Of a stretch of 58,592 bases of DNA, positions 39,137 through 58,592 are shown piece by piece (within the stretch, counting starts at the first letter, position 1; every line of letters begins with the position of its first letter). The position numbers and the translations under genes are program-made. The stretch lies in IMG/VR virus record IMGVR_UViG_3300041809_003506, positions 1-58,592 of that record; one strand, given 5' to 3'. The notes below the pieces were generated by a model. It worked only from the letters and a program-made list of their open reading frames with translations, did not search any database and was not told where the DNA came from. The stretch is from a virus (taxonomy: Duplodnaviria > Caudoviricetes).

Positions 39137-39296
39137 CGCTATCCCCCGCACGCCGTCACATGACGCCAGGGAATCAGCGTTTCTGCGCTATGTCAATGTC
39201 CGAAAAAGCAAAACGCCCCAGAATGGACATTCCGAGGCGCGGACGACTCACAGAGCAACACAGTGGCAATTTACTGCCCCTGATGCGTACCCCATG

Positions 39297-40043: not shown

Positions 40044-40100
40044 TCGCCGTTTCCCTCTTAATCTTGCTGTTGCGGCCGAACACTGGCGGTTACGGAGCAC

Positions 40101-40427: not shown

Positions 40428-42226
40428 CTATTGACATTTTGCGAATCACCCTTGAGCACGTGACCGTCGCTGTCGACGAAGTCGCTGACCTGGTGCTTGA
40501 GCTTGACGCCGAGCCACCACATCACGTCCGAATGTTTAGAGATAAAGCCGCGCTCCTTGAGCGCCATCGCCAATCCCTTCGGCGACCACTCGGCGACCGA
40601 GTTGGCCTTACCCCACGCGCAGAACAGCGCATGCATTTCGCTCGAGCGCACGCGGCCGGCCTTTGAAACGACGACGCAGGCCTCGAGGAAGCGGCCGCAC
40701 GGATCACTGTCGCGGCGATAGTCGGCTGTGGCGGCAGTGACGTCTTCCGGCGTGACCAACCCATGCTCGAGCCAATCGCGCAGACCGTCAAGCAAACGAT
40801 TGAGAATGCCGGAGGCCTCAGCGCGCACTTTCGCGCCCAGATGGCGATCGATTTTCTCCTTCGGCACGGTGATGGCCCACGGCACGAGCTCGACGCGACG
40901 CCAGATGCCTTCATCGGCGCCGACGATTTGCGGTCGATAATTGCCGCTGATCGTGAGCTTGAATTGCGGATAGAACTTGAAATAGTCGCGGTTGAGATGG
41001 CGCGCGAGCAGCGGCTCGCCGCCGGTCGCGAGCTTGATTAATGTTTCGGCGAGCTTGGCGCCCTTGTCAGGCTCCGACGTGCGCAGATGGCGAACGCCCG
41101 GGAGGATGGCCAGATCCGGCGTCGCCTGACCAGCATTGCGCGATCGACCTTCGTTCAAAAAGGTTTCGATCGGCACGGTCTCGGAATAGTCGCCGGCGAC
41201 GTAAGCGCAAACATCGATGAAGGTGGACTTGCCGTTCTTGCCCTTGCCCCAGAACACGCAGAGTTTTTGATCGGTGACGTCGCCGGTGAGCGACAGGCCT
41301 TGCCATTGCAAGAGGAAGCGTCGGTTTTCCGCCTTTGGCTGCACGTAGGCAAGGAAATCATCGAAGATCGGACAGACCGCGTCCTTGTTGTAGACGACCG
41401 GCGAGCACTTGGTCATGAGGTCGGCGGGATCGTGTTGCTTGAATGTGACGCTGTCGCCTTCCGCGACCTTGCGGCAGATTAGCGTGCCGTTGGCGACGTT
41501 GAGCTTGAACGGATCGGCGTCGAGGAGCTCCGTTGCAACGTGCAGATATGGCGCCGCGCGCTTGGCGATCGGCGCCAGACGGTTCGCCTGTTCCGAAGAA
41601 CGTCCCCAGGCGCGCAATTTGTCCGACATGAGGATCACGCCCTGACCCTTCGGGACTTCGAAGTCGCGGCCGCTGGCGGCGAGCGCAGTGCCTTCGTCCT
41701 GAATAGCTCGGACGGTGACGTGCTCGGCGAGCTTGACCTTTTCCTCTGATCCGTCACGGCACCAACGCTTGCCGTCCCACCACAACCAGCCGAGCGCCGG
41801 ACACCAGAGAAGCTTGCCGCGGTAGCGCTCACGGAAGCGCTCGGCGTTGCCGAGATCGGTGTGCGGAAAGAACGCCAGCCGAAGATTGAGGCCGTCGCCG
41901 TCGTCATCGGCAGGTGCCAGCGGCGGCAGATCGCCTCTGTTGCCGCCGCCTCCACTTTCCGATGATGGATGCTTTTGCGGTAACGCTCCCATTTGGGAGG
42001 ATGTTCGAAAAGAAACGACATTGCCGCCGACAGGCGCGGCAACCGGCGCGGCCGCGGCGGCAGTGGGAGGATCTGTGCCCTTGTCGCTGGAAGGCGAAGA
42101 CCGATCGGTGCGCGCCTGGCGGCGCGCCGGTTTTTTCGCAGCGCGCTCCGCGCGCGGGATCTCGGGCGCCTCGATCGGCCCCGCAGCATCGATGATGGCG
42201 ACGATACGTTCCCAGCCCATGCGCAA
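40397..42226 (-). CDS. P4-family D5-like SF3 helicase
   Basis: TDLGNAERF, WDGKRW, GKGKNGKST Walker A, TGGEPLLAR, DEGIWRR. Confidence 0.92.
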   Translation of the reverse strand: MRMGWERIVAIIDAAGPIEAPEIPRAERAAKKPARRQARTDRSSPSSDKGTDPPTAAAAAPVAAPVGGNVVSFRTSSQMGALPQKHPSSESGGGGNRGDLPPLAPADDDGDGLNLRLAFFPHTDLGNAERFRERYRGKLLWCPALGWLWWDGKRWCRDGSEEKVKLAEHVTVRAIQDEGTALAASGRDFEVPKGQGVILMSDKLRAWGRSSEQANRLAPIAKRAAPYLHVATELLDADPFKLNVANGTLICRKVAEGDSVTFKQHDPADLMTKCSPVVYNKDAVCPIFDDFLAYVQPKAENRRFLLQWQGLSLTGDVTDQKLCVFWGKGKNGKSTFIDVCAYVAGDYSETVPIETFLNEGRSRNAGQATPDLAILPGVRHLRTSEPDKGAKLAETLIKLATGGEPLLARHLNRDYFKFYPQFKLTISGNYRPQIVGADEGIWRRVELVPWAITVPKEKIDRHLGAKVRAEASGILNRLLDGLRDWLEHGLVTPEDVTAATADYRRDSDPCGRFLEACVVVSKAGRVRSSEMHALFCAWGKANSVAEWSPKGLAMALKERGFISKHSDVMWWLGVKLKHQVSDFVDSDGHVLKGDSQNVNRGGLDEEVTF

Positions 42227-42232
42227 TTTTCT

Positions 42233-43429
42233 CTAGGCCGCTCGCCGCAGCTCATCGTTGAAGTCCTCGCCATCGGGTGCCCAGGCGACGCGCACGCTGC
42301 GACCAGGCGCGGCATAACGTCGAGCTGATCGAGCCAGGGCGCATTGCGTGGTGAAGCGATCGCTGTCGCCGTCGCCGAGCAGTACCAGGTCCGTCACGCT
42401 CTCCGGTATCGTTAGACCTGGCGCGCGCAGATCGGGCTCAGCGCCCGGCACCCGCCGCGTGCGGCCGGCTTTATCTTTCAATGTCGGATGCGGCACGCTG
42501 TCGGCCGCCTTGCCGGCGAGGTTGCCGAGATCGACGGCCGACCAGAACGCCATATTGACCATGCCGACCGTGTCCTTGTTGCGCCGGCGGTCCAAGAGCA
42601 GCGCCAGCCAGACCGAGAGAACCGTTTCGATGCCCTCGCCGATCATCAACGTGTGCGGCCACTCGCTCATGCAGGCCACGCGAATGATGTTGCCGGCCTT
42701 CGAACCGCGCACCTTTTTCGCCGGCAGCGTGGCGTTGGGATCCTCGCTGTCCGTGTCTCGTATCCAGGCCTTGCGCCCGGGCTTGACCGGATCGAGCCAG
42801 GTGATGTGCACAGCACGGAAACGTCGCTCAGCGTCGACGATCGCCGCCAGCATCGCCGGCCCGCGATAGACGACGCGCGGCGACATGCGGCCAACCTCGT
42901 TTTCCGCCTCGCCATGGAAATAGGCGACGTCGGGAGCAAAACGCAGCGGCACGCGATCGGGCAGTTCCACCAAGCCGCGATGGATCAAATAATCCTCGGC
43001 CCAAGAACCGCGCAGTTCGGCGCCGGCGTGCCAGATATCGAAGGCGACCTTGCGTTCCCGTTCACGATAGCTGTTGGCCTCGCGCTCCGACAGTTGGCGC
43101 TTCTCCTCGCGTTCGCGCTCGAGCTCGGCCGCGCGATCGGCGGATGGCTCGGCTGAGCCGCCCAACAATTCGACGGCACGGGGAAAATCGACGTCCTCGC
43201 GCTTCATCATGAGCTTGATGACGTCGCCGCCGTCGGCGCAGACGGCGCACACCCAGCCATCGGCGTCACATTCGAACGCCGTGGAATCCCGCGCCTGTGG
43301 ATCGGGCGAATGCAGCGGGCACGGCCCAATCAGCTTCTTGCCGTGCTTGCGCAGCTTCACCCACTTACCCGCGACCTGGTCGCAGGGATTGCGGGCTTTC
43401 AGATCGGCAAGGGCGGCCTCGGAGATCAT
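42233..43429 (-). CDS. DNA primase (CHC2 zinc finger plus Toprim)
   Basis: GPCPLH...CAVC...GGDVI; IGEGIET; LGDGD; DFND. Confidence 0.9.
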   Translation of the reverse strand: MISEAALADLKARNPCDQVAGKWVKLRKHGKKLIGPCPLHSPDPQARDSTAFECDADGWVCAVCADGGDVIKLMMKREDVDFPRAVELLGGSAEPSADRAAELEREREEKRQLSEREANSYRERERKVAFDIWHAGAELRGSWAEDYLIHRGLVELPDRVPLRFAPDVAYFHGEAENEVGRMSPRVVYRGPAMLAAIVDAERRFRAVHITWLDPVKPGRKAWIRDTDSEDPNATLPAKKVRGSKAGNIIRVACMSEWPHTLMIGEGIETVLSVWLALLLDRRRNKDTVGMVNMAFWSAVDLGNLAGKAADSVPHPTLKDKAGRTRRVPGAEPDLRAPGLTIPESVTDLVLLGDGDSDRFTTQCALARSARRYAAPGRSVRVAWAPDGEDFNDELRRAA

Positions 43430-43950
43430 GTGCCGACCTTCGGCCCTTCCGAGCCATCATTCTCATACCAAGTAAATTCGCCGTCCTCGCCGACCGGGAA
43501 ATGGGCACGGCACGTGGTGCAGAAGGTGCCGTTATAGAACTTTGGATCGCGAGCGTATGTCTCGGCGATTTCGCGGCTCATGGTGGTGATCTTGCCGCAC
43601 TTCAAATGCCGATAGGCGTCACGTACCGGTCGCACAAAGCCTTTAGCTCGTTCGGCGGGCGTCAAAACGATGTAGCCTTTTTGTTGGCCGGTTGAAGGAT
43701 TGATCTCGCGATGATCTTCCGTCACGGAACCGCCGCCGGATAGCTCGCGCGCCGAACGATCAACCGGGATGGCCTCCGCGGCTTTCCTCTTTGCTATCTC
43801 CCATTTTGCATACGCTGCGGAAACAGTCTTCTCCGCTTCGTACAAAGCCATCCTGGCCTGTTCTTTCAACAAGACTGCCCGGTCATAGTCCCATTGCGCG
43901 CGCTCGAGCTCGGTCGTCGATTGCTCGGGAAGACTGTCGCCGTGGCCCAT
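43426..43950 (-). CDS. Hypothetical zinc-ribbon protein
   Basis: HLKCG...FCTTCRAH; coupled. Confidence 0.65.
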   Translation of the reverse strand: MGHGDSLPEQSTTELERAQWDYDRAVLLKEQARMALYEAEKTVSAAYAKWEIAKRKAAEAIPVDRSARELSGGGSVTEDHREINPSTGQQKGYIVLTPAERAKGFVRPVRDAYRHLKCGKITTMSREIAETYARDPKFYNGTFCTTCRAHFPVGEDGEFTWYENDGSEGPKVGT

Positions 43951-43960
43951 TGTTTTTTCC

Positions 43961-44239
43961 TCAGTGGACGGTATCGCGGACTTCTCTCATCTGCTTCAGC
44001 AGATACTCGGAAATTCCGCGCTCGTTGGTCTCTCGGATCGTCGCCCATGACATTTCGATGATCAGGGCCTTGTCATCCATCGCCACGGCGAATCTCACAG
44101 CCTCGCGAGATCGCGCCGCGACAATCTTGCCGCCAACGTCATCAGCAACTTTCTCGCCGCGCTCTACGCGCTTGAGGATCTCGGCGATACGGTCAGCTTG
44201 CTGCTTGAGGACGCGAAGCGGCGATCGAGCCGTCGTCAT
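43961..44239 (-). CDS. Hypothetical protein
   Basis: GGAGGTG SD; ATGA coupling. Confidence 0.6.
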   Translation of the reverse strand: MTTARSPLRVLKQQADRIAEILKRVERGEKVADDVGGKIVAARSREAVRFAVAMDDKALIIEMSWATIRETNERGISEYLLKQMREVRDTVH

Positions 44240-44469
44240 GCCGTCACCTCCGCCAGGCGCTCGGCCTTGCGCTGCGCATTGAGGCATTTGCGCAGCCCGA
44301 GCTTGCGCTGCCAGAGCCTGATCGTGGATTCCTTGACGCCGAGCTCCTCCGCCAACAGCGCCGGATCGACGCCGGCATGGCTGCGCAGGAAGGCCGCGCG
44401 TTCGCTGGTGAGCCAATAGGGCTTCGGCTCCCATAGTTCGGGCGCGTGGACTTTGACCTGGCGCGTCAT
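44236..44469 (-). CDS. Small HTH protein
   Basis: LAEELGVKESTIRLWQRKLGL. Confidence 0.65.
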   Translation of the reverse strand: MTRQVKVHAPELWEPKPYWLTSERAAFLRSHAGVDPALLAEELGVKESTIRLWQRKLGLRKCLNAQRKAERLAEVTA

Positions 44470-44903
44470 CGGGCGCCTTCCTGTAGCCGCTGCAGCAACG
44501 GATCGGGGAGGCGCTGTGCCGATATGATTTTGGACTTGTTACGTCGCCGTCCGGCCCATTGGCGCTTTCGCACCTTCGGGTTCTTGTTGATCTTGATGCA
44601 GTGGAACCGCGCCTGGCGGCGCATTTCCGGCCGCGACATGACATCGGCCATCACCGCTGCCTGCACCGAGCGGTACGCCGGCGCGCGCCGCACCCGCTTC
44701 TGCCCGCGGATGCACTTATTCTTCAGTGCCTCGTTGTCGCGCATGCACGCGTTGAGCCGCTTCATGCGGCCGGACCTGGCAGCCCGCTCATCGGCGGTGA
44801 TCGTTGCCGGTCGGCGGTCAGCGTATTGGCCGCTGCGCCACCGCTGCCGCATCGCGGCGCTGAAGGCTTCCCGGCGCTCTGGTGTCCAGGGCTTGCCGCT
44901 CAT
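44466..44903 (-). CDS. Basic Arg-rich DNA-binding-like protein
   Basis: WTPERREAFSAAMRQRW; coupled on both sides. Confidence 0.55.
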   Translation of the reverse strand: MSGKPWTPERREAFSAAMRQRWRSGQYADRRPATITADERAARSGRMKRLNACMRDNEALKNKCIRGQKRVRRAPAYRSVQAAVMADVMSRPEMRRQARFHCIKINKNPKVRKRQWAGRRRNKSKIISAQRLPDPLLQRLQEGAR

Positions 44904-45256
44904 GCCGCCTTCTCCGTCTTGCGGCCCTTGAGGCGATCGATGATCTCGCGATCGGCGACGACGCGGTCGATCAGCTTGGCGCAGGCGCGCAGTTCCTGTG
45001 CGCGTCTGAGCATCGGCTGATAGCGATAGGTGCGGATGGGCGGCGACGTCGGCGTGTTCATCACCAGGGCGTCTTGCGATGACTCGATGCGCTCGGCTTC
45101 GGTCAATGCGGCGTCACGCATCCGGGCAAAGGTCATCGGCAGACACGCAGGCGGCGCGTCGCCGTCGTCCCAGGCGAGCCCGCAGCGTTCGCATTCCCAG
45201 CCGCTTGTGAGCTGCTGGGCGACGCAGACAACGGTCGGGGTTTTCTGCTCGCTCAT
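44900..45256 (-). CDS. Hypothetical zinc-binding protein
   Basis: C...CERCG...C; coupled. Confidence 0.55.
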   Translation of the reverse strand: MSEQKTPTVVCVAQQLTSGWECERCGLAWDDGDAPPACLPMTFARMRDAALTEAERIESSQDALVMNTPTSPPIRTYRYQPMLRRAQELRACAKLIDRVVADREIIDRLKGRKTEKAA

Positions 45257-45567
45257 GCTCGGCATGCCTCTTTCGGCGAGTTGTCGATGATGTGAAATTC
45301 GATCGGCTGCTCCGGATAGAACACGCCGAGCCGCACCAGCCATTCCTCGACCTCGCGGCGGATGATTTCGCGCGCCGCTTCGAAGGATGGCGCCGGCCGG
45401 AAGCTGGACCTGTGATATTCCGGCAATCGCAGCGAGAACGTCGCCTTGATGCGCTGCCCGCGATATTCGGAGATCTCGCCGACGATCACGTCGCCGAGCC
45501 GCACCAGTTCGCGATCGAACTCGCCGCGGGTGAAGGTGAGGATCGGCGTCACGGCACGATCCACCAT
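45253..45567 (-). CDS. Hypothetical protein
   Basis: Co-oriented; ATGA coupling. Confidence 0.55.
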   Translation of the reverse strand: MVDRAVTPILTFTRGEFDRELVRLGDVIVGEISEYRGQRIKATFSLRLPEYHRSSFRPAPSFEAAREIIRREVEEWLVRLGVFYPEQPIEFHIIDNSPKEACRA

Positions 45568-45616
45568 GCGATGCCGGCGGCGGCGAGCAAAGCGAGGAGG
45601 GTGATTATTTCATCGC

Positions 45617-46048
45617 TCATATGCTCGACCATCCCTGCTCGCGATGCGTCTTGCCGTGGGCGAGCGGCAGTTTCAGAATCTCCGGAAACAGCTCGCGCAA
45701 TTCATTCAGCGTCGGCTCTTGCTTGTCCGGCTCCCATTCCCGCGCCCGGCTGCAGAGCTGATCGGCGATGATCCACCAGCTGGCGATCATCGATTTGGAA
45801 TCGATCGCCTTCTGGATGTGATCGGTCATGCGACGGAGCAAGTTCTCGCACTCAATCAGATAGCGGCGGTCATCCTCGCGGCCATCTTCGAGCACGCCGC
45901 CCTTGGTGACCGGATGCTTGATCATCTCGACCAGGGTGCGGCGATCGTCGATCGACAACCTGGCGCCGGCCCAGGCCAGGCATTTGCGCAGATTGGAATT
46001 CTCCAGCTCGGCGAGATCGCAGCACTCGGGCGATGGATGCGTGGTCAT
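45617..46048 (-). CDS. Hypothetical protein
   Basis: GGAG SD; ATGA coupling. Confidence 0.55.
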   Translation of the reverse strand: MTTHPSPECCDLAELENSNLRKCLAWAGARLSIDDRRTLVEMIKHPVTKGGVLEDGREDDRRYLIECENLLRRMTDHIQKAIDSKSMIASWWIIADQLCSRAREWEPDKQEPTLNELRELFPEILKLPLAHGKTHREQGWSSI

Positions 46049-46400
46049 CGCTGCGGCTCCGCTTCGATCTCGACCAGCCTGCCGAGCGGCTCGCGATACT
46101 TACCGGCGATCAAATCAAGGAGCGTGCCAAAGGGGCCGGCGGCGGAGCCATCCGGATTGCGGGTGATGGTTTCGCGTATGGCGTCGATCGAGCATCCATG
46201 CTGCAGCAACAGGCTGAGCATGACCGCGCCGTCCCTGGCGTGCGTCTCCAGCGCAGTGCCGGATTTGCTGACGTTCAAGAAGACTTCGCCGATGCGGCCG
46301 TGCCCATAGCGGCCGACGCCGGCCGTGTAGTGAAAGCCGCAGTGGTCGAACTCGAAAACCTCATGACTGCGGAGATCGGGCATGCGTGAGCGGGCGGAGC

Positions 46401-46404
<4 letters not shown>
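46045..46404 (-). CDS. Stand-alone TSCPD (NrdJ C-terminal-like) domain protein
   Basis: GRIGEVFL...K.GT...ARDGAVMLSLLLQHG. Confidence 0.75.
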
Positions 46405-47560
<1,156 letters not shown>

Positions 47561-47564
<4 letters not shown>

Positions 47565-48931
47565 TCGGCGGCCTCTTTGAGCTCAGCAATCGTAACCGCA
47601 GGGATCATGTCGCCGTGCCCATCCCATTTCTCGCCGCGATCGACGGTCTCGAACAGCGTGGCATAACGCGGCGCCGCGACCAGGCGTTCGAAGTCATCGA
47701 AGAACTTCTTCGGCTTGAGCGAATGACGCTTCTTATCGATCGCGCCATGAAAGAACGTGGTGATGTTGTCGACCTGGATGACCGGCTTGCCGCGCGTGGC
47801 GATGATGCAATGCTCGGTCTGGCCGCGCAGCACCTGGCCGCGTCCCATACGGTCTTTGACCCAGGTCTTTATGGTGACGGGATCGAAGCCCCAAGCTTTG
47901 AATATCTCGACGTGATCGCCGCGCGCCAGGTGATAGTTGGTGATCCAAAGCCCGAGCACGCAATCATCGTGCGCGATCGAAGCGACTGGAACCGCGGCGA
48001 TCTGCGCCGGCGTCATCGTCGGATAGGGATAGTAGCCACGTTCCAGGCGCGCCGGATCCTCATCATCCGGCTCGGCCGCCCATGGCGGATCGACGACGAT
48101 GCCGCGATAGGGACCGTTGCCCGGCAAGGGCGGCGGCTCCTTGCGGATCTGCTCGGCCGCCTGCATGGTCTGCAGCCGTTTGAACGGGCCGTCGACGCGG
48201 CCCGATTTGTCCATGTCAGATTTGAGCTTGCCGAACCGGCTGGGGTTTTTCTCCGCCGCATCGACGATCGCTTCCGCCTTCTCAATGGTGCGCCGCGACT
48301 TGCCGGTAAACGACGCCGCGCGCTCGCCGGCGTTGATCTTGTCGTCAGTCGCTGCAGGGCCGCCCTTGCGTCCAGGCGCCGTCTTGCCGTGCGCCTGGCG
48401 CGCCTTGCCGAGCGGCTTCAGCCGGGCCTCGATCTCGCGCTTAATGGCAACGGCTTCCGATGGCCGGAAGTCCATGCGCAGCGCCGGATCGTTCTCCGCC
48501 CATTCGCCGGCGACGATGTCCTCGAGCGGCACGACGCGGACTGGGATCGGCTGATCGCGGAAGATCGAGAGCTGCCAGGCTTTCAACCGGCGCTCGCCGG
48601 CAATCAAGATATTGTCGCGGCTAACGACGATCGCGTGCAGCAATCCGTGTTCGTTGATGTCGCGGGCGAGCGCGGCAATATTGCCCATCTCCTTTCGATG
48701 GCGCTTGCCGATCTTGATCTTCTTCCAGGGAACGCAAATCTGCATGCGCTCGTCGAGCGTTAGTGCGCCTTTTTTCCAGCCGGCGGCGCGAACATCTTCT
48801 GCAGCCGCACGCTTATCAGCGGCCGCCATCTCCGCGAGCACAGGATCCGAGCGTTTGCGCGGCCGTGCGGCCTTGTGCTTCTTCGCCGGCGCCGGCTTGC
48901 GGGCGCGTTTTTTGGTGTGGCGCTTTTTCAT
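47561..48931 (-). CDS. ParB-N domain fused to MT-A70 family adenine methyltransferase
   Basis: GLLHAIVV...LIAGERRLKA...EN; VDPPW, YPTM, WVK, RGQTEH, HSLKP. Confidence 0.88.
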
Positions 48932-49797
48932 GCGCGCTTCCTCGCCTTAAACTGTTTCTCGAGTGCATCGACTAGGCGCGACTCGAACTGATTGAGCGTT
49001 GAAGTGCCTTTCATCCTGGCCGCCGCCGACGCGCCCTCGACGTACAGCACGCCGAGATCGATCTGGTCGAAGGCCGCCGCTAACAGTTTTTGATTGCTGC
49101 GCCATTCCGGATGATCGGCGAGCACCTCGCAGGCGCCATAGATAATCGTCTGCGTGAGGAGCCCGGCGTTGTCCTCGCAAGCCCGTATTGCCTTCAATGT
49201 CGGAATGATGCTGTCGCCGAATTTCGCCACAGCGCGGCCAAGGGCGCGAACCGAAACCGTTTCGCCTGGCTTCATGTCGACCGTCTTTTTCGGGTAACGA
49301 CAGACCGTTATCCCGACATGGGCGCAGACTTCGGCGATGCGCACAGCTTCCGGCTCTCCCGCCATGACCGCGGCGTGATAAACCTGGATGGAATGCAGTC
49401 GCGTCGTGTTGTTGTTGATCGCCTTGAAGGCTGCGGCTTGCTCGCTGCGGCTGCATTCGATGATCGCGCAGGGCACACGATCGAGACCGCACAAGGCGGC
49501 GGCCGTCACGCGATGCTGACCATCGACAATCGCAAATCTGCCCCCCCCCGCGGCAGCGACGGCAACGGGTGTAAACATCGACCAGTTGAATTCCGATGCG
49601 ATGCGGCGGATATTTTGGCGGCCATTATAGCCAACGTCGCGTTGATAGTCGGGATCGACTACCAGATCGCGGATGGCCAACCATTCAAGACGCGGCGGCT
49701 TGCCGAAGGTCGAAGGCGGCCTGATTTTATTCGCGTGCGAAAGCTTCGGGCTCAGAAAGCTCTCGATTTCGATGGCACGGAAAGCCGGCGCGCTCAT
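48928..49797 (-). CDS. ParB/Srx-like nuclease-domain protein
   Basis: LVVDPDYQR...IVDGQHR...F..IN. Confidence 0.8.
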   Translation of the reverse strand: MSAPAFRAIEIESFLSPKLSHANKIRPPSTFGKPPRLEWLAIRDLVVDPDYQRDVGYNGRQNIRRIASEFNWSMFTPVAVAAAGGGRFAIVDGQHRVTAAALCGLDRVPCAIIECSRSEQAAAFKAINNNTTRLHSIQVYHAAVMAGEPEAVRIAEVCAHVGITVCRYPKKTVDMKPGETVSVRALGRAVAKFGDSIIPTLKAIRACEDNAGLLTQTIIYGACEVLADHPEWRSNQKLLAAAFDQIDLGVLYVEGASAAARMKGTSTLNQFESRLVDALEKQFKARKRA

Positions 49798-50147
49798 CGT
49801 GTTGGCCTTTCCGGAGTGTCGTGCATCGAGGCGAGAGCAGCGCCGGCATCGGCGCGTGCGATCGGCATCAGATGGCCAATGACGCCGTCCCAATCCTTGG
49901 CGCCGATTTCGTTGAAGAGATGCCGGCAATAGAGCGAGCGATCGACGGCATGCAGGAGTGCCGGCGCTGCATTATCGAGGAAGCGCGCACCCGTGCCACT
50001 GGCGGCGATCGCCGCCTCCAGCGTGCCCTCGAGCGCCTCGCAGCGCAGCCGCCGCGGATCCAGGTCGCCGGTCGGCGGCCGGCAGAGGATCTCCTGCGCG
50101 AAGCCGACGATCTCGATGAGCAGCCCGGAGGCTTCGTAGGGGGTCAT
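49794..50147 (-). CDS. Hypothetical protein
   Basis: Coupled on both sides. Confidence 0.55.
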   Translation of the reverse strand: MTPYEASGLLIEIVGFAQEILCRPPTGDLDPRRLRCEALEGTLEAAIAASGTGARFLDNAAPALLHAVDRSLYCRHLFNEIGAKDWDGVIGHLMPIARADAGAALASMHDTPERPTR

Positions 50148-50458
50148 GGCTTAGCCGCCTCATAGAATTCCGTCGGCTGGCGGCCTGATCTAAGCCATCG
50201 CTCTTCGACCGGAATGCTTTCCTGAATTTGATCGGATCGCTCTTGCGCGCATTTTCGATGTGCCATGACCCTGCAACGCACGCGACCTGGCGCGCCGAAC
50301 TTGCTGCCGATGCGGAAGCGCACTGCGGACTTCGGATGCCCGGCTTCGCCGCCTTGATAATCGAGAATGGCATCCTCGCCGCAGATGTGGCATTTGCCGT
50401 TCTGCTTGTTGAACAGATAGGCGAGCTGCTCGCGGCGATCGGTCCTGGTCTCGGTCAT
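50144..50458 (-). CDS. Degenerate HNH-like zinc protein
   Basis: QNGKCHICG...AHRKC. Confidence 0.55.
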   Translation of the reverse strand: MTETRTDRREQLAYLFNKQNGKCHICGEDAILDYQGGEAGHPKSAVRFRIGSKFGAPGRVRCRVMAHRKCAQERSDQIQESIPVEERWLRSGRQPTEFYEAAKP

Positions 50459-50585
50459 CGCGGCGCTCCCCCAATCCAGGCGAGGCCATAGACGACAACG
50501 CCAAGCAGCGGCCCGATGATCAAACACACGGCGCGGATGTAGAGATCGGCGGCGCCGGAGGCGAGATGATCGAGGAGCTGCGCGG

Positions 50586-51158
50586 TCATGCGGCCGGCTT
50601 TCTCGGCTCGAGCGCCTCCGACATGGCCTCCCATTGAGATCGCTTATGCGCCGGCCGTGTCTTGAGCCGATCGAACCGTTCACCCTCGGCCAAGATCAAA
50701 GCGCCGGCGCGGACAAGATCACGGCGGAAGTTCTGCGGCTTCCACCACGATCGATCCCATGGCCAGGTCGAGGGCATCGGCACATCTTCGCCGGCATAGA
50801 AGGCATAATGCGAAGCGGCCTTCGCTAACTCGCCTCGCTCATGAAAGTCGTCGTGCTCGTGCGACCAGCCTTCGGATTCGATCTGTCGATAGCGCTCCGA
50901 AATCACGGCCTGCATGAAGGGCGACAGTGCTCGACGGATATGCAGCGCCTCGAAGATGCGCCGCATGCCGTACTGCCGCGCGATCGAGATGACCGTCATG
51001 ATCAGCGCGAAGATGAAATTCTGCCGTAAGCTGATCTCAAGGCCGAGCAGCGGGAGAAACGTCGCCTGCGCCGCCATCGAAATGCCGAAGCCGACCAGGA
51101 TGCTGACGAACGCCTCGATCAGCGACATGATTTTGGACTGCTTCAACGAATCCCCCAT
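50586..51158 (-). CDS. Two-TM domain fused to a conserved phage domain
   Basis: QSKIMSLIEA...SIARQY; ERYRQI..EGW..EHDD...RRDLVRAGALILAE. Confidence 0.7.
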   Translation of the reverse strand: MGDSLKQSKIMSLIEAFVSILVGFGISMAAQATFLPLLGLEISLRQNFIFALIMTVISIARQYGMRRIFEALHIRRALSPFMQAVISERYRQIESEGWSHEHDDFHERGELAKAASHYAFYAGEDVPMPSTWPWDRSWWKPQNFRRDLVRAGALILAEGERFDRLKTRPAHKRSQWEAMSEALEPRKPAA

Positions 51159-51226
51159 TGCTCGCGTTCAATCGAAACGCGGGAACGCAAAGCAACAACA
51201 CTGACTTACGCGGGAAAGAACAGACG

Positions 51227-52234
51227 CTAGGAACGACCCTCGGCCCCTTGTTGTTCGGATAAGCCGAGGCTACGGATCAGATTGGCACTATCGGCGAAAC
51301 GCGCATGGCCGAGCCATGCGGCAAGGAAGCTATCGAGACGTTTATGATCGCCGGCGGCGCGATAGGCGGCGATCTTGCGTCGTGCACGGATGACGCTGTC
51401 GCGCCGCAATAGCTTGTGCGTCGACCAGATGAGGTAGCCGAGAAAATTGATGCCGCGGCTTGCCGGCGCGATCTGCCATTTCGAGAAGCGCAAGCCCAGC
51501 TCAGCGCGCGAGAACGCCTCGATGCTCTCCTTGACGGCGCGCAGATGACGGGAGCTCTCGCCGAGCACAACGAGATCGTCCATGTAGCGAAACCAGTAAT
51601 CCTCGCCCAGCGTCTGCTGCAGATGCCGATCGAGCGTAGCGCCGGTGTAAAGATTGGCGAAGACTTGCGAGGTGAGGCTGCCGATCGGCAGGCCGATGCC
51701 GCGCCGCGGCACCATCGCTTCGATCAACCGCAACGTGGCTTGGCAGCTGATCTTCGCTTCGATCAGGCGCCAGAGCGCGCCATGCTCGATCGAGGCAAAG
51801 TATCGAGAGAAATCCGTCTTCAGGAAATAGACCTGGCCCCGGCGCGAGAGATGCCGGAGATCGCGCTGCAGGGCGATCGCGCCGGCGTGCGTGCCCTTGC
51901 CGGGGCGGCAGGCGAAGCTACGCGGCAGCAACGCGCGATCGAAGATCGGCGCGATGATCAGGCACAACGCCTGCTGCGCGACCCGGTCGCGGAACGGCAA
52001 CGCCGAGATCAATCGTCGCTTCGGATCGAGGATGAAAAACTCGTTCGGAGCGCCAGGCGAATAATGACCGGCCGCCATGTCCTGGGCGAGATCGGCGAGA
52101 TTGAGCGCGTCATATTCCTTGAAATCGAGATAGCCAGCGGTCAGACGCTTGCCGCGCGCCGTCAACCGATAGGCTGTCTGCATCGTTTCGAACGATGTGA
52201 TCTGGCCGATGAGGTTGCGGTAACGCTGTGACAT
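51227..52234 (-). CDS. brt: DGR reverse transcriptase
   Basis: PFRDRVAQ, GKGTH, LKTDFSRYF, GLPIGSLTSQ, RYMDD, FLGY; no maturase or endonuclease domain; the ORF stays open upstream to 52552. Confidence 0.95.
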   Translation of the reverse strand: MSQRYRNLIGQITSFETMQTAYRLTARGKRLTAGYLDFKEYDALNLADLAQDMAAGHYSPGAPNEFFILDPKRRLISALPFRDRVAQQALCLIIAPIFDRALLPRSFACRPGKGTHAGAIALQRDLRHLSRRGQVYFLKTDFSRYFASIEHGALWRLIEAKISCQATLRLIEAMVPRRGIGLPIGSLTSQVFANLYTGATLDRHLQQTLGEDYWFRYMDDLVVLGESSRHLRAVKESIEAFSRAELGLRFSKWQIAPASRGINFLGYLIWSTHKLLRRDSVIRARRKIAAYRAAGDHKRLDSFLAAWLGHARFADSANLIRSLGLSEQQGAEGRS

Positions 52235-52417
52235 TCCTGGTTCGCACGCTGAGATGAAGATGCCGGCCGCGGGTCTCGACGGGCTTTGCCCGCTACGCCC
52301 CGCTCTGCCGGACCTTGAAGTGTGTTCGCCGAAGCAGGACAGACGGGCTGACCACCGACCTTGATCTTGTGTGGCCGGCCGGCGTGACCTTAGTCGTCGC
52401 CGAGCCGTGATCCGGTC
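52235..52417 (-). ncRNA. DGR spacer RNA segment (IMH* and priming region) between TR and RT
   Basis: Position matches the BPP-1 spacer; GC-rich hairpins such as CGGGC-AAA-GCCCG. Confidence 0.5.
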
Positions 52418-52544
52418 GTCACAGCGGCCGCGAGCGCCCAAGTTATCGTTCGAGTTGTCCGGCCAGTTGTAGGCGACGTTCGCGTAGCGCGAGCCCGCGT
52501 TGTCGACGTTGAGCCAGGAACCGCCGAAGAAGGAAGCGCGCGGC
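52418..52544 (-). repeat. DGR template repeat (TR)
   Basis: 127 bp, 118/127 identical to 52982-53108; 20 adenines and 7 AAC codons. Confidence 0.97.
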
Positions 52545-52548
52545 AGCA

Positions 52549-52935
52549 TCATATCCCCGTCCGCCCTCCGAGCTTCTTTTGCCACGCGCCCAGCATCCGC
52601 CCCGGCTCCGACAAGAGCGCTAGAGCAGTCTTGTGTTGATGCGGGGTGATGATCCGGATGCTGTCGCGGGCTAAGAAGCGCAGGTATGACCGCAAGGTCG
52701 CGAACTGAGCATCGACGGCGTGCAGCCGGGATATCTGTCTCGACTTTGCGGAGTGATAGAGGCCGCCGATCGGCTCGAACAACGCGGTTAACACGGTGTC
52801 GCGAAGAACGCCATGTTGACGCGGGCTGCGCTGCAGGATCGGGTAGAGATAGCTCACGAAGGCCTCGTATTTTTCGACGATCGCCAAAGCGTCAGTGCTG
52901 GTATTTTCGTCTCTGATGATCGTCGTTTCGTTCAT
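52549..52935 (-). CDS. avd: DGR accessory variability determinant (four-helix bundle)
   Basis: 128 aa between VR and TR; YLYP...P+..G.LR...LRSYLRF...EPGRMLGAW. Confidence 0.9.
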   Translation of the reverse strand: MNETTIIRDENTSTDALAIVEKYEAFVSYLYPILQRSPRQHGVLRDTVLTALFEPIGGLYHSAKSRQISRLHAVDAQFATLRSYLRFLARDSIRIITPHQHKTALALLSEPGRMLGAWQKKLGGRTGI

Positions 52936-52944
52936 TTCTCAAGC

Positions 52945-52964
52945 GCCGTCGCTGTCGCGCCGGC
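52945..52964 (-). promoter_or_regulatory. DGR target-recognition hairpin downstream of VR
   Basis: GCCGGCGC-GACA-GCGACGGC: 8-bp stem with one mismatch and a GRNA loop, at the target stop codon. Confidence 0.7.
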
Positions 52965-53878
52965 TAAGCAAGCTGCAGGTGGTCACAGCGGCCGCGAGCG
53001 CCCAAGTTATCGTCCGAGCTGTCCGGCCAGACGCAGGCGACGTCCGCGTAGCGCGAGCCCGCGTAGACGACGTAGAGCCAGGAACCGCCGAAGAAGGAAG
53101 CGCGCGGCTCGTCCGGATCGCCATCGTGGCCCCAAACCCACATATTGCCGGTCGCCTGCATCAAGCCGAATTTGCTGGTGCGAGGCGCATCAAGCGCGGT
53201 GACGCGAGGGTTGCTGGAATGCGCGGTCTTTTCCGTCACGCCGAGGGCGGCGGCAAAGAACTCCTCAACGCTGAGCAATCCCTTGCCGTGATGCTTCATG
53301 ACGGCAACGGCCGTGTCATAGTCGAGCTTGGAGAAATGCTTGCCGTTCGGCTTTGCCGGCGGATCGTCGCCGTCCGCGATCGTCGCACCCAACTTGCTGG
53401 TGCCGTCGGCGACGTGGCTGACGCCGAGTAAATAGATATCGCACCAAAATTTGCCGGTCGGCGCATCGACCAGCACCATGCCGCGCGGATCGGGGCATAC
53501 CGGACGAAAACTCAGATCCCATAGTGAGTAGGGATTAATCGCCGGGATCTCATCGCCGCCTTTACGCGCTGCCGCGCTGCCGCCTGGCGCGAAGTGGAAA
53601 CCGCCGAGGATATCGTCTCCGACGATCGGCGAGGTTAGATGAGCGTAGCCGACTGCCCCGTCCTTGATCACAACGACGTAGTCGCAGCCAGGCTCCAAGG
53701 GAATGTCGAAAACGACGGGCGTATCCTTATCAAAGGTCACGCCGGCGTAGATCGTGCCGGCCTTGATTGCAATTGAATCTCGTCCGGTCACCAGCAGCGC
53801 CGGCGAGTTCGGATCCTTTTTGACCATCGTCGCCGTCGCGGCGGCGAGCCCGGTCTTCAATGCAGCATGCGAGTTCAT
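52964..53878 (-). CDS. mtd: DGR target: Mtd-like C-type-lectin-fold protein lacking the N-terminal beta-prism
   Basis: IKAGTI, GGFHFAPG, YSLWD..FRP..DPRGM, FWCDIYLLG, GTSK, TSKFG..QATG, FGGSW...GSR...GARGRCDHL. Confidence 0.9.
   Translation of the reverse strand: MNSHAALKTGLAAATATMVKKDPNSPALLVTGRDSIAIKAGTIYAGVTFDKDTPVVFDIPLEPGCDYVVVIKDGAVGYAHLTSPIVGDDILGGFHFAPGGSAAARKGGDEIPAINPYSLWDLSFRPVCPDPRGMVLVDAPTGKFWCDIYLLGVSHVADGTSKLGATIADGDDPPAKPNGKHFSKLDYDTAVAVMKHHGKGLLSVEEFFAAALGVTEKTAHSSNPRVTALDAPRTSKFGLMQATGNMWVWGHDGDPDEPRASFFGGSWLYVVYAGSRYADVACVWPDSSDDNLGARGRCDHLQLA
52982..53108 (-). repeat. DGR variable repeat (VR)
   Basis: Nine substitutions relative to TR, all at TR adenines (5 A>G, 4 A>T). 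Confidence 0.97.
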
Positions 53879-54166
53879 GTGTCAGGACTCCAGGTAATGC
53901 CGGCACCCCGCCGGCGGGGTGCAAGAGGATCGGGCGACGGCGGGGCACATAGCGCGATCACGCGCCTTCCCGACGGAGGCGGCCGCAAAGCAGGCCCCCG
54001 CATATTTGACCCGGGCTCATGGATGCCAAGGCCGCCGCCCGAACTGAATATCCCCATCAGAAGCGTCAGAACTCCGGCGGGCGTCGCTTGCCAATGGCGA
54101 CGGTGGTCCCTTTTGGCAGGCTGCCGGCATTTCGTATGACCTACGCTGACGCTCCTGGTGGGGATT

Positions 54167-54400
54167 TCAATCGACGAATTCTTTGTTGACGACGACGATG
54201 CCGCGCGCCGGCACTTTGCGCTCGCCGTTGATGATGCGATTGGCGTGGCGCTCGCTGCACCGGATGCGCTGCGCGAGCCATTGTGCCGGCTTGATGCCGC
54301 CGGCGAGCGCGACGATGCATTTGCCGAAGGAACTCTTAGGGACCAATTGGTCCCTAATTGGTTTTGACCGGCGCCGCTTCCTTGTGAACGATTCGCGCAT
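54167..54400 (-). CDS. CII-like HTH regulator
   Basis: LAQRIRCSERHANRIINGER; downstream of cro; GGAG SD. Confidence 0.55.
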   Translation of the reverse strand: MRESFTRKRRRSKPIRDQLVPKSSFGKCIVALAGGIKPAQWLAQRIRCSERHANRIINGERKVPARGIVVVNKEFVD

Positions 54401-54636
54401 GACAACACTCCAACGCAGACACAACACAACTTCGCCGCGGCGAGACGCGGGCCGACCGGATTGGAGGGCAAGTCCAGCGTACCGATCGGCCCGCACGCAC
54501 CGCGCGAAAAACTCTCGATCGTCCCCGCAAACGAGGGGCTGTGCACAATGGTGCATAAGTTCACCCTTGCGTTGCGTCCGCTTGCGTACATCGCAAGATT
54601 GTCTTGCGTGGAGCATACAAGCGGGGAGCTTGGGCA

Positions 54637-54894
54637 ATGAGTGGGAATGGAAATGGAGAATTGTTGGAGCTGACAAGCATCGCGGATGTATTTGCAGACG
54701 ACATCCATCACGTCGAGGTTATCGGCGACAACTGCCGGATGGTCTTCTTTCGCTGGCGAATGATCGAAGGAACCTGGCGCCGCGTCGCCGTCGAATGGGC
54801 AATGGTGCGCCCGATCAAATCGTTGCATCTGCCACTGCCGGCCTGGGGATCCCTGGTGACCCCGCAGCGGGAGAGCGTCGTGCTGCACAGTTAA
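54637..54894 (+). CDS. Small hypothetical protein, antisense to the early operon
   Basis: GGGGAG SD; DVFADDIHHVEVIGDNCRMVFF looks like a natural beta domain. Confidence 0.55.
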   Translation: MSGNGNGELLELTSIADVFADDIHHVEVIGDNCRMVFFRWRMIEGTWRRVAVEWAMVRPIKSLHLPLPAWGSLVTPQRESVVLHS

Positions 54895-54899
54895 GCCGC

Positions 54900-55109
54900 T
54901 CATTCGGCAGCCTCGAGAAAATCGTTGGCTGTCACAGCACCGCGCGTCTCGCGGCGGATGGCTTCCATCTTGTCTTTTCCCGGCCATATCCGGCCCTCAG
55001 CGTATTCGGTCACCATCGTCGGCGTGACGCCGATCGCCTGCGCGAATTTGTATCTGCGCTTGCGGGAACCGTCGGCGTTGGGGATGCGTAACCAGTCGGC
55101 CAGCTTCAT
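54900..55109 (-). CDS. cro: Cro-like repressor
   Basis: MKLADWL...FAQAIGVTPTMV..Y..G...P...TRGAVTANDF; divergent from cI. Confidence 0.88.
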   Translation of the reverse strand: MKLADWLRIPNADGSRKRRYKFAQAIGVTPTMVTEYAEGRIWPGKDKMEAIRRETRGAVTANDFLEAAE

Positions 55110-55142
55110 GTGCGAATCTCTGCGTGCGAATCTCTACCATGA

Positions 55143-55215
55143 ATGAAATTCTAGCTCAACAAGATTTATGGCCACACTCGATGGCACCCGCTACAGGTAT
55201 GGCTAAAATTCTAGT
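55143..55215. promoter_or_regulatory. Candidate rightward operators (two imperfect CTAAAATTCTAG-type palindromes)
   Basis: ATGAAATTCTAGC (55143) and GCTAAAATTCTAGT (55202); similar sites at 55876-55906. Confidence 0.5.
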
Positions 55216-55216
55216 T

Positions 55217-55585
55217 ATGCCGAAGAAAGGCCCATATCTGCGCCGGCAGGAGCATCGCCTTCGGCTGCGCGAAAAGACGAACTTCGTGCGCGAGTGGCGC
55301 GAGACGAAGGGCTGGACGCAAGAAGAGCTGGCCGCTGAGTCGGGACTATCGGTCTCCAGCATTTCGGCCTACGAGCGGCTCACGATCGACGGCAACGATC
55401 CGAGCGTCGAGGCGCTGCGCAAGCTCGGCAAGGCCCTCGGCGTGCCCGGCGGCATGATCCTCGATATTGACCCGACTCAGGATCCGACGCTCTGGTCGGC
55501 GTTTCAGCGCGCCACGCCGGATCAACGGCGCGATATGGGAAGGGCCTTCGATGCAATGGTCGGACCGCAGAAGCGGAAGAAATAG
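55217..55585 (+). CDS. cI: CI-like XRE repressor (no S24 peptidase domain)
   Basis: VREWRETKGWTQEELAAESGLSVSSISAYER...PSVEALRKLGKALGV; start uncertain. Confidence 0.85.
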   Translation: MPKKGPYLRRQEHRLRLREKTNFVREWRETKGWTQEELAAESGLSVSSISAYERLTIDGNDPSVEALRKLGKALGVPGGMILDIDPTQDPTLWSAFQRATPDQRRDMGRAFDAMVGPQKRKK

Positions 55586-55868
55586 CTTCGTCGCCGCGAT
55601 CGTTGCCGCGGCGCTGCTCGCCGGCTGCGCCACGCAGTCAGCCGTGCCGCAGATCGACCCGCATCGCTACACGGAGCTGACGCCGGGCACCTCGACGAAG
55701 GATGAGGCGATCGCGAGGCTCGGTACGCCACAGAGCATTTCGGCGATGCCGGCCGGGGCCAGCCTGTTGCAGTGGATCGACAATTACTCCGCGGCGCCGA
55801 TCCACGTTGCCATCATGTTCGGCGCCGATGGCCGCATGATCCGCGTCGAGCACGTTTTCAGCCAGTGA
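55551..55868 (+). CDS. Lipoprotein, SmpA/BamE-like fold
   Basis: Lipobox LLAGC; L.PG.STK.E....LG.P; F..DG. Confidence 0.75.
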   Translation: MQWSDRRSGRNSFVAAIVAAALLAGCATQSAVPQIDPHRYTELTPGTSTKDEAIARLGTPQSISAMPAGASLLQWIDNYSAAPIHVAIMFGADGRMIRVEHVFSQ

Positions 55869-55875
55869 TTGCCTT

Positions 55876-55906
55876 ACTAAAAATCTAGTTGTGCCGTAGT
55901 TCTAGC
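55876..55906. promoter_or_regulatory. Candidate operators and promoter of the int-proximal early operon
   Basis: ACTAAAAATCTAGT and CCGTAGTTCTAGC, followed by TATAAG. Confidence 0.5.
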
Positions 55907-55943
55907 TGAGCTATAAGTCCCTCGTCTTTTCGACGGGGCACTC

Positions 55944-56180
55944 ATGGCACTCATTCTCCCACTGCACGCGTTCTGCCCGAAGTGCCGGAAGCCAATCCGG
56001 CTGGCGCTGATCGAGCCGCATCCGACGCGGGATGACGTCGCGCATCACATCTTCGACTGCGCCAAGTGCGGGCCGGTTCTTACCATCGTCGAAAATCTGA
56101 TCGAGGAAACGGCCGAGGTCGTCGAGATCGATTACCTGCGCACGATGGCGCGGATTTCGCGCGTCATGGCGGCGGGGTGA
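55944..56180 (+). CDS. Zinc-ribbon protein
   Basis: CPKC...CAKCG. Confidence 0.65.
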   Translation: MALILPLHAFCPKCRKPIRLALIEPHPTRDDVAHHIFDCAKCGPVLTIVENLIEETAEVVEIDYLRTMARISRVMAAG

Positions 56181-56185
56181 ACGCC

Positions 56186-56299
56186 ATGCCCTCCGATCGC
56201 CCGCGCCGAAATCAAACTTCATTGTTCACGGCCATCAGCGTGTTCGCCACCGTGGGCTCGATCATTTTCATTCTGTCGATCGCGGCGGGGATGCATTGA
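56186..56299 (+). CDS. Small single-TM protein
   Basis: GGGGTG SD; hydrophobic C-terminal half. Confidence 0.45.
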   Translation: MPSDRPRRNQTSLFTAISVFATVGSIIFILSIAAGMH

Positions 56300-57214: not shown

Positions 57215-57660
57215 CGCGCGCCCTACCCTCACGCGATCAGATCGGCCCCGACACGCCGCTGCGACTCGCCGACGCCGTCGCCACGGCCTACCCCTGCGGC
57301 GGAATGACCGTTAGCGGGTTACGCACAGAGGCACGCAAGGGGCGCCTTGTCATCGAGCGCGTGGCGGGCAAGGATTTCACCACCTTGGCGGCGATCGAAC
57401 GTATGAGGGTACTATGCCGCGGACAGCAACCGGACCTCACCTCTGGCTCCGCCCCGAACGCCGCAATCGACGCGGACACGTCACTCACCAGGCCAGCTGG
57501 ATCATTGTCGACGGAAAACATCAACAAGGCACTAGCTGCCTTCACAGTGACCGCCGAGGAGCTGAGCGAGCGCTTGAACGCTACATCGGCCTCAAATACC
57601 GCGACGCGGCGAAAGCGGGCACCCGTGATCCAGCTTCGATCCCGGTCGTCGACGTCCTAA
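57211..57660 (+). CDS. xis: Excisionase-like protein
   Basis: PLRLADA...MTVSGLRTEARKGRL..ERVAGKDFTT; overlaps the start of int. Confidence 0.75.
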   Translation: MTRALPSRDQIGPDTPLRLADAVATAYPCGGMTVSGLRTEARKGRLVIERVAGKDFTTLAAIERMRVLCRGQQPDLTSGSAPNAAIDADTSLTRPAGSLSTENINKALAAFTVTAEELSERLNATSASNTATRRKRAPVIQLRSRSSTS

Positions 57661-58592
57661 CTCTCTATGCAGCGAACATCGTCCCGCGCCATGCGCGGCC
57701 GCGCGAGACGCTGGCCCGCATTCAACGGTTGGTCGACTTCTTCGGCAATAAGGCGCTCGCCGATATCAACGGCGAGCTCTGCCGCAGCTTCGTCCGCGCG
57801 CGGTCGACGCCAGGTGCCGGCCGTGACGATCTCAGCGTGCTGCGCGCCGCGATCAATCACCATCGCGAGGAAGGGTATTGCCGCGAGCTCATCAGCGTCG
57901 CGCTGCCGGAAAAGAGCCGCGGCCGGGAACGATGGCTGACCCGCGCCGAGGCGGCCGAGCTGATCTGGCGCGCCTGGCGCTTCCGCGAAAAACAAAAGGG
58001 CAGGGCGACGGCGCGGGCAAGCCGCCAGCACGTCGCCCGGTTCATCCTGGTCGCGCTCTACACCGGGAGCCGCGCCGGCGCCGTCTGTTCGGCAGCGCTC
58101 GATCCGATCGAGGGTAGGGGCTTCATTGATCTCGACCGCGGCATCTTCTACAGGCGCCCTGCGGGGGCCGCTGAAACGAAGAAGCGGCGGCCGCCAGTAC
58201 CGTTGCCCCGGCGGCTTTTGACTCACCTACGGCGCTGGAAACGGCGCGGGCAGGCCTTTGCCGTCGAATGGAATGGCGCACCCGTCAGAGACGTCGACAA
58301 AGCGTTCCGCCACGTCGCCCACGAAGCCGGCATGCACGACGTCACCCCGCACGTTCTCCGCCACACGGCGGCGACATGGCTGATGCAGCTCGGCACGGAT
58401 CTATGGGAAGCCGCCGGGTACCTCGGCATGAGCGTCGACCAGCTCGAGCGCAATTATGGTCACCATCACCCCGATCATCTCAAGGGTGCCAGGGATGCTT
58501 TCGATCGGCCGCCAAAACGTCGCCAATCCAACGCCATCGCCGAGAGCGATTTAACGGCTTCGAATGTGCGCAAGATCGCCGATAATCGTTGA
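57414..58592 (+). CDS. int: Tyrosine recombinase / phage integrase
   Basis: YTGSR, K, HVLRHTAATW, YLG, YGHH catalytic residues. Confidence 0.95.
   Translation: MPRTATGPHLWLRPERRNRRGHVTHQASWIIVDGKHQQGTSCLHSDRRGAERALERYIGLKYRDAAKAGTRDPASIPVVDVLTLYAANIVPRHARPRETLARIQRLVDFFGNKALADINGELCRSFVRARSTPGAGRDDLSVLRAAINHHREEGYCRELISVALPEKSRGRERWLTRAEAAELIWRAWRFREKQKGRATARASRQHVARFILVALYTGSRAGAVCSAALDPIEGRGFIDLDRGIFYRRPAGAAETKKRRPPVPLPRRLLTHLRRWKRRGQAFAVEWNGAPVRDVDKAFRHVAHEAGMHDVTPHVLRHTAATWLMQLGTDLWEAAGYLGMSVDQLERNYGHHHPDHLKGARDAFDRPPKRRQSNAIAESDLTASNVRKIADNR

Follow-up and report, generated by a model that had tools for sequence, protein, structure and literature searches.

A free-standing Mtd core as the target of a diversity-generating retroelement in the early region of a provirus and its relatives

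Diversity-generating retroelements (DGRs) of phages are generally read as host-range switches on tail proteins. The IMG/VR provirus record IMGVR_UViG_3300041809_003506 raises the question of what such a system might do when its hypervariable target is encoded among early genes. The record was analysed over its full length of 58,592 bases (hereafter the window; estimated completeness 82%). It carries a complete BPP-1-type DGR with one target on the minus strand at 51227-53878, comprising the target gene, Avd, the template repeat (TR), the DGR RNA and the reverse transcriptase (RT). The target is a free-standing core of the protein Mtd with a beta-sandwich and a C-type-lectin fold. We tentatively favour the reading that this protein is an early-made, soluble and cytoplasmic hypervariable binder acting off the virion, and we would give this reading slightly less than an even chance. 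We infer early co-transcription from the position in the operon and the tight spacing, the cytoplasmic location from the N-terminus of the protein, and the off-virion role from the context.

The retroelement can be called complete with one target because all parts are present and a scan recovered no further copy of the variable repeat (VR). The target gene (52964-53878, minus strand as are all parts of the cassette) encodes 304 amino acids without Mtd_N or a signal peptide, and its VR (52978-53108) codes for residues ~257-301. Avd (52549-52935, 128 amino acids) matches PF22296 bAvd with E 2.7e-26 and 92.6 bits against a cut-off of 40. The TR (52414-52544) forms a 131-nt direct repeat with the VR and contains 21 adenines. 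Between TR and RT, the spacer at 52262-52405 matches the Rfam family RF03022 Phage_DGR over model positions 1-127 of 127 (89.2 bits, gathering score 50, E 4.9e-15). The RT (51227-52234) has 335 amino acids from the ATG at 52234 and a RVT_1 domain (E 2.6e-18); a longer listed open reading frame (ORF) for it, reaching up to 52585, passes through the TR. Its sequence includes IGSLTSQ, which we take to be a motif of the DGR type, and RT homologs of related loci are 52-80% identical. TR and VR mismatch at 10 of 131 positions, nine of them at TR adenines and the last a G>C change at the 3' end, and the differences alter eight residues of the encoded stretch. In a check for the initiation of mutagenic homing signals (IMH and IMH*) and a hairpin 3' of the VR, the two repeats part ways after repeat position 127, and the sequence 3' of the VR folds no better than shuffles (z -0.81). 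The first-pass annotation of the DNA had seen no second VR in the tail genes, and our adenine-agnostic scan of both window strands likewise gave the TR and a single VR only. Contigs from a DNA run, which is a possible source of the window and hence not independent, span 36200-52447 and 53079-56199, with only short contigs over the TR/VR repeats. The contigs show no alternative letters inside the VR and three in run X2 (53109, 53123, 53135) just past its 5' edge.

The target was initially described as a truncated Mtd, and the comparison with known structures agrees. A phmmer search of PDB chains found five BPP-1 Mtd variants (E 1e-45 to 3e-51; best 1yu3, E 2.9e-51), with target residues 17-303 aligned to Mtd residues 56-380. 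Identity to Mtd of the BPP-1 group is 38-40% across 94% of the protein. The AlphaFold2 model (34 homologs, pLDDT 76.8, low at residues 1-13 and in the VR) superposes on 1yu0 with a TM-score of 0.79. The target matches the PHROG family phrog_11262, annotated as a tail protein, with E 8.5e-77, restricted to profile positions 72-392 of 393, and reaches 24.0 bits with PF21916 mtd_2nd, marginally below the cut-off of 24.6. Homology alone would make the target a receptor-binder. The protein might indeed be a virion receptor-binder or an auxiliary adhesin, with an Mtd core that trimerises alone and docks non-covalently to a tail or fibre protein via some adaptor or surface. We regard this explanation as quite possible, if short of probable, and the sequence identity, the PHROG match and the fold all speak for it.

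The target lacks the first ~55 residues of Mtd (Mtd_N), as the alignment opens at Mtd residue 56. Mtd_N (PF18454) had no match at E<=1 in six frames of the whole window. A tblastn query with the first 60 Mtd residues alone (E<=0.01) had no match in the window or in the related loci L003-L019, where the same search likewise found no homologs of BPP-1 bbp9/bbp10 or P12026 gp18/gp19. With full-length Mtd as the query, no tblastn alignment reaches further towards the N-terminus than residue 43, apart from those in L005, which start from residue 14. The beta-prism is presumed to be the part that attaches Mtd to the fibre (Baykov 2023, PMC10743442). The target also appears to have no signal peptide, judged by eye and hydropathy rather than by a dedicated predictor, which agrees with the earlier contrast drawn to the fibres. 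The best 12-residue Kyte-Doolittle mean at the N-terminus is 1.21, compared to 2.26-2.59 in four fibre-like ORFs of the window. A receptor-binder would thus have to work without the Mtd_N domain and, as the wider family indicates, without a conserved N-terminal peptide.

The short form is no accident. Homologs at E<=1e-10 comprise 753 proteins, and most of the best 120 are of ~300 amino acids. A profile-free search of 1.84 billion cluster representatives gave 528 matches at E<=1e-3. The best 150 of these comprise 36 short forms, 11 proteins extended at the N-terminus by 31-100 amino acids (BPP-1 type), 74 extended by more than 100 amino acids and 29 that align partially. Across 34 aligned short forms, the first ~15 residues vary, so that these members share no conserved docking peptide, and conservation opens at a K-x-D-P-x-x-P-A strand starting the beta-sandwich. 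Three apparent long fusions were rejected as gene-calling artefacts: P0121 is a ParB-like gene run into the target gene, P0122 has a mis-set start and P0124 carries a helix-turn-helix tail after the VR. Other relatives do carry the core behind a long N-terminal extension, which looks fibre-like in the five proteins inspected, and these favour a role in receptor binding. The N-terminus of one long form resembles the fibre of locus L008 (37% over 57 amino acids, E 6.5e-6), which points in the same direction. A third Mtd-core copy in the genome of L003 (G040) lies on a separate contig (C2:2100011-2100937) within a 759-amino-acid open frame. This may be a long fibre-fused form beside short early-operon forms.

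The family appears to be undergoing diversification. At loci with Avd and RT, redundant loci included, 113 of 121 target copies are VR-like, defined as at least 93% TR match at non-adenine positions over 100 nt. Mismatches number 1253 at adenines compared to 54 at other positions. Every copy is VR-like in 33 of 38 multi-copy loci. Across 80 non-redundant groups, Avd and RT are present in 68, and the target is found as two full-length copies in 34 groups and as three in one. Two or three tandem diversified copies would suit multivalent display and hence a receptor-binder. The cassette could instead be a selfish or decaying hitch-hiker with a target that is now functionless. The variable presence of the cassette as an accessory element would fit, as would the 8 of 121 tested copies that no longer match the TR. 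We consider decay highly improbable, given open frames of ~300 amino acids conserved over hundreds of proteins, adenine-biased mismatches that keep these frames open, the retention of Avd and RT in most groups and a DGR RNA scoring far over the Rfam threshold.

The placement of the target in an early operon, as originally proposed, is confirmed by its neighbours in the window. Nearly all window genes are on the minus strand, from a cro-like ORF leftward to the tail and lysis genes. Along the direction of transcription, the target is preceded by the cro-like ORF (54900-55109, 69 amino acids), a possible small ORF, a small conserved early ORF (54167-54400, 77 amino acids from an internal ATG) and a 288-nt stretch without coding signal. 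Downstream of the RT follow a DUF7220 gene (50586-51158, minus strand, PF23858, E 4.2e-24) as the next operon gene, then genes for a ParB-like protein, a ParB-MT-A70 methylase, phrog_2045, a primase, a primase/helicase, HNH, TerS, TerL, portal, protease and the major capsid protein (MCP). The target thus lies past the cro-like gene and an early ORF and before the ParB, methylase and primase genes. Tail genes, including the tape measure protein (TMP) gene at 19707-21761 and a J-like tail protein gene at 14151-17672, are 36-46 kb away, in line with the distance of about 40 kb to the fibre cluster given at first. A 370-amino-acid ORF abutting the target (53875-54987) was rejected as a gene, given its low third-position GC content (GC3) and its overlap in another frame with the conserved 77-amino-acid ORF, which has a GC3 of 0.80-0.88 and is kept in L006, L101, L106, L112 and L113.

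The names cro, cII-like and fibre used in the first-pass annotation are consistent with position and, for the fibres, also with composition, although none of these genes has a family match. The cro-like label is purely positional and reflects divergence from a cI-like repressor gene (55124-55585, plus strand, HTH_3, E 2.7e-13); the 77-amino-acid ORF is the one at the cII-like position. Past the J-like gene, five Ser/Thr/Gly-rich ORFs at 7754-13320 on the minus strand (566, 152, 243, 465 and 271 amino acids) have signal-peptide-like hydrophobic N-termini, where two of the five have a motif in common. None of the five matches a Pfam or PHROG family; they are fibre-like by position and composition only, and could encode fibres or secreted proteins. 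The integrase gene (57414-58592, plus strand) runs off the record end. At the opposite record end, a tRNA-Pro (CGG) gene (92-168, plus strand) is likely the attachment site, with the other junction outside the window. Between the MCP and the head-tail adaptor, the minus strand at 27871-30580 carries a radical-SAM gene (406 amino acids) and a second gene (501 amino acids) whose matches are glycosyltransferase- and methyltransferase-like.

The early-region placement is not a one-off. We assembled 17 loci from genomes and 78 from IMG/VR (from the best 80 of 492 relatives), which reduced from 95 to the 80 non-redundant groups. The genome loci are mostly from Hyphomicrobiales, with Bradyrhizobium, Rhodopseudomonas, Afipia, Nitrobacter, Mesorhizobium, Hyphomicrobium and Devosia represented, and include cultured soil bacteria such as Bradyrhizobium sp. 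YR681 (L010) and Mesorhizobium sp. SP-1A (L014). Placement was scored by markers within 6 kb, drawn from the window and from annotated neighbours; three of the early markers (DUF7220, phrog_2045 and DUF3102) count as early by position only. An early or DNA-metabolism marker is present in 62 of 80 groups, on both sides of the target in 17 of them. Packaging markers are found in five groups, tail markers in two (L008 and L019) and no marker in 17, many of which are short contigs. A single insertion or a misassembly, which the first-pass annotation had named as refuting its reading, can be rejected given the recurrence of the layout in 62 groups and the contigs spanning the region except for the TR/VR repeats. 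If the target were a receptor-binder, the placement might be explained by an early mosaic region that tolerates insertions or by early RT expression that aids retrohoming.

DNA-modification genes are constant neighbours of the target. When 147 neighbours (105 amino acids or more, within 6 kb, 16 loci) were tallied by Pfam family, MT-A70 came up seven times, GapR five, integrase four, HTH_36 four, C5 methylase three and DUF7220 three times. None of the 25 neighbour families listed from this tally is a tail family (51 further families are unlisted). Neighbours across the family include MT-A70, C5 and N6/N4 methylases, GapR and SNF2. The first target gene has an upstream ORF on its own strand that ends no more than 50 nt away in 10 of 17 loci, based on crude gene calls, which suggests co-transcription. 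The upstream neighbours vary among loci and no partner or adaptor gene is conserved beside the target, which speaks against a receptor-binder.

The cassette is carried by phages with three kinds of virion, HK97-like, lambda-like and sheathed. The window encodes an HK97-like head module (TerL phrog_9, portal phrog_12, MCP phrog_10) together with the J-like tail protein. L003 has a lambda-like backbone (TerL phrog_15, portal phrog_21, MCP phrog_29, a protease and a decoration protein), and its structural module lies ~15 kb downstream of the cassette, past a replication initiator and a DnaB-type helicase. Among 39 long viral records that bear the cassette, a sheath gene is present in seven and a J-like gene in a separate set of 12. 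As a receptor-binder, one conserved protein must dock on HK97-like, lambda-like and contractile tails. It would also be encoded at a considerable distance from the tail genes, since tail markers in 19 viral records are 10.9-44.5 kb from the target (median 26 kb). No clear case of a remnant prophage, with a cassette and without structural genes, was found among the relatives checked; TerL (PF03354, phrog_9) is on the cassette contig, 9-26 kb off, in L005, L007, L010, L011, L012, L014 and L015, and L003, which matches neither of these TerL families, has the lambda-like module described above.

Loci with related early genes show the cassette to be accessory and mobile. The early region of the window is matched in synteny by L101, with one ORF being 92% identical, and L101 has other small genes at the place of the cassette. 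The existence of such a close relative without the cassette is a further difficulty for a receptor-binding function. Homologs of the ParB-MT-A70 protein of the window were retrieved at four loci, all four without Mtd, Avd or RT within 10 kb. Among the small ORFs of L101 at the place of the cassette, one of 278 amino acids (L101:7545-8381) combines a long Gly-Ser-Tyr/Asp repeat with a globular part at the C-terminus.

A conserved structured non-coding element of ~125 nt (53925-54048, minus strand) lies within the 288-nt stretch that precedes the target; it ends 47 nt upstream of the target ATG and is not a DGR part. The element is also present at L101:6839-6962 (94% identity, with flanking coding sequence far less conserved), at L010:6569-6691 (80%) and in L105-L116. 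Its 28-nt core was found in 12 viral contigs. An alignment of 14 copies predicts 37 pairs in four helices, with changes on both sides at 10 pairs and few pairs broken. No Rfam family matches the element. In the window and in 7 of the 12 viral-contig loci, early genes follow it downstream on its own strand, and in relatives it stands at the head of the early operon. It directly follows the small conserved ORF in the window, L106, L112 and L113. The element may act in cis as a leader of this operon, possibly in antitermination, or be a small RNA.

Alternatively, the target might be expressed from the prophage. In such a moron-like role, the protein made by a lysogen would bind and exclude incoming phages or other invaders and act as a pre-diversified host defence. 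The accessory nature of the cassette and the intergenic stretch with its structured element are compatible with this role, and a role of DGRs in immunity has been hypothesised (Belalov 2023, PMC10053308). The layout, with the target on the cro side, speaks against it because the cI-like repressor should silence this operon in the lysogen. A scan of 50000-56000 on the minus strand found no sigma-70-like promoter, which is a weak test for an alphaproteobacterium, and the sole terminator-like site on that strand near the target falls inside the gene. A separate promoter has no room in 10 of 17 loci, and the target has no effector domain. We thus consider prophage expression as a defence improbable.

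We prefer an off-virion role of the target over receptor binding because the protein has no anchor, no partner gene is conserved, the virions are of three kinds and the DNA-modification neighbours are constant. In this retroelement, the RT, aided by Avd and primed on the TR-spacer RNA, would copy the TR with errors at adenines. The cDNA would then replace the VR and rewrite ~8-14 residues of the binding face of the lectin fold. On the reading we prefer, the target would be produced with the early genes, as the first gene past the structured leader and as a soluble cytoplasmic protein. It might then take part in conflicts between phage and host or among phages, for instance as a binder of variable defence or other factors of the host. 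More speculatively, the DGR could provide temperate phages of Alphaproteobacteria with a pre-emptive intracellular "antibody library", with the binding face rewritten in each genome, from which a variant neutralising a host defence protein or another variable host factor would let its phage genome replicate and so be selected directly without virion display. We view this extension as rather unlikely.

Several observations weigh against an off-virion role. Mtd, the closest relative to have been characterised, binds receptors as part of the virion, and the target has no effector domain of its own. Mtd-type binding is reported to rely on multivalent avidity, with 12 trimers per virion (Miller 2008, PMC2408619), which a soluble trimer would lack. 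The 74 long forms among the best 150 representatives bear the core at the C-terminus, with fibre-like N-terminal regions in the five inspected, and a further 11 have the extension of 31-100 amino acids. In BPP-1 and P12026, the Mtd homolog comes after tail-fibre genes. Synechococcus phage S-CBS3 (L022, 6779-7939) has its mtd homolog between the major head protein (MCP) and head-tail genes, and not by fibre genes. Within the surveyed groups, tail genes adjoin the target at L008 and L019. The short form of L008 (58% identity) has ParB/DUF3102 genes on one side and, 3.2 kb downstream, a tail-fibre gene with fibre-assembly and sheath genes behind it. The L019 copy (Opitutales, 40% identity) comes directly after the gene of a J-like tail protein. 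The tail markers in the placement count are few and insensitive, and the 80 loci, being those most closely related to the query, share ancestry and are not independent events. Contigs of the RNA library X3 fill all 30 bins of 36200-56199, TerL and DGR alike; they are uninformative on early versus late expression because only contigs are available and DNA carry-over is possible. Runs X4-X6 contain small shares only and were left aside for judging habitat. Finally, the evidence for an off-virion role is all contextual. The first-pass annotation had offered either a non-virion role or attachment through an adaptor. The missing anchor, the lack of an adaptor gene, the three backbones and the DNA-modification neighbours would favour the former, the tail-proximal loci and the fibre-like relatives the latter.

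Either answer would have implications beyond the window. The family represents a large clade without a recognisable virion anchor, with hundreds of proteins and 80 non-redundant loci, and its cassette travels within the early DNA-modification operon of phages whose virions are unrelated. If the target acts on the virion, there must be a docking mode for a receptor-binder that works on very different tails, which would be useful for engineering. If it acts off the virion, targeted hypermutation also serves intracellular phage-host conflict, an idea that one paper has put forward, on a gut Bacteroides phage. No description of the alphaproteobacterial Mtd-core clade was found in the literature searched, excluding the supplementary tables of Roux 2021 and Benler 2021 that may list such targets.

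The closest known systems include the DGR of BPP-1 (mtd-avd-TR-brt; PDB 1YU0-1YU4, 2IOU). Both systems share the order of target, Avd, TR, spacer RNA and RT, the adenine-specific mismatches, and a target with beta-sandwich and C-type-lectin domains and the VR at the C-terminus. The window target differs in lacking the first ~55 residues (Mtd_N), and the window has no bbp9-type fibre gene. The mtd gene of BPP-1 directly follows the tail-fibre gene bbp9, whereas the window target follows the cro-like gene and an early ORF, far from the tail genes. Marinomonas phage P12026 gp20 (494 amino acids) and metagenomic proteins of 400-1000 amino acids have the same core at 33-52% identity. These long forms carry N-terminal extensions of more than 100 amino acids, fibre-shaft-like in the five metagenomic proteins inspected, and the window target has none. 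Short targets have precedents in gut phages. The targets nd4_tgt2 and nd12_tgt2 (Baykov 2023, PMC10743442) and the second target of FP_Toutatis (Egorov preprint 10.1101/2024.10.15.618418), the latter 17.5 kb from its TR, are likewise small and without a beta-prism anchor. Compared by description only, they differ in having DUF6273 and no beta-sandwich. Their authors presume that these short lectin-only targets bind receptors, which lends support to the same function here.

Viral DGR targets have been classified mostly as tail proteins (Roux 2021, PMC8144416), and phage targets known earlier are stated to be structural by Benler 2021 (PMC8008677). The latter paper already describes a phage DGR target outside the structural proteins. 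The phage in question, Quimbyvirus of gut Bacteroides, has a second DGR target "nested within defense-related genes", beside DNA-modifying and counter-defence genes and distal to the structural module. The comparison, again by description only, reveals differences in protein family, which is the Mtd core in the window, and in host phylum. The Quimbyvirus target is also a second and remote one beside a structural target, whereas the window target is the sole one, adjacent to its TR and within a cassette placed as a whole in the early operon. Both are lectin-fold proteins encoded outside the structural module and next to DNA-modification genes, which are the ParB-like and ParB-MT-A70 genes in the window, and the authors suggest a role in phage-host conflict for the Quimbyvirus target.

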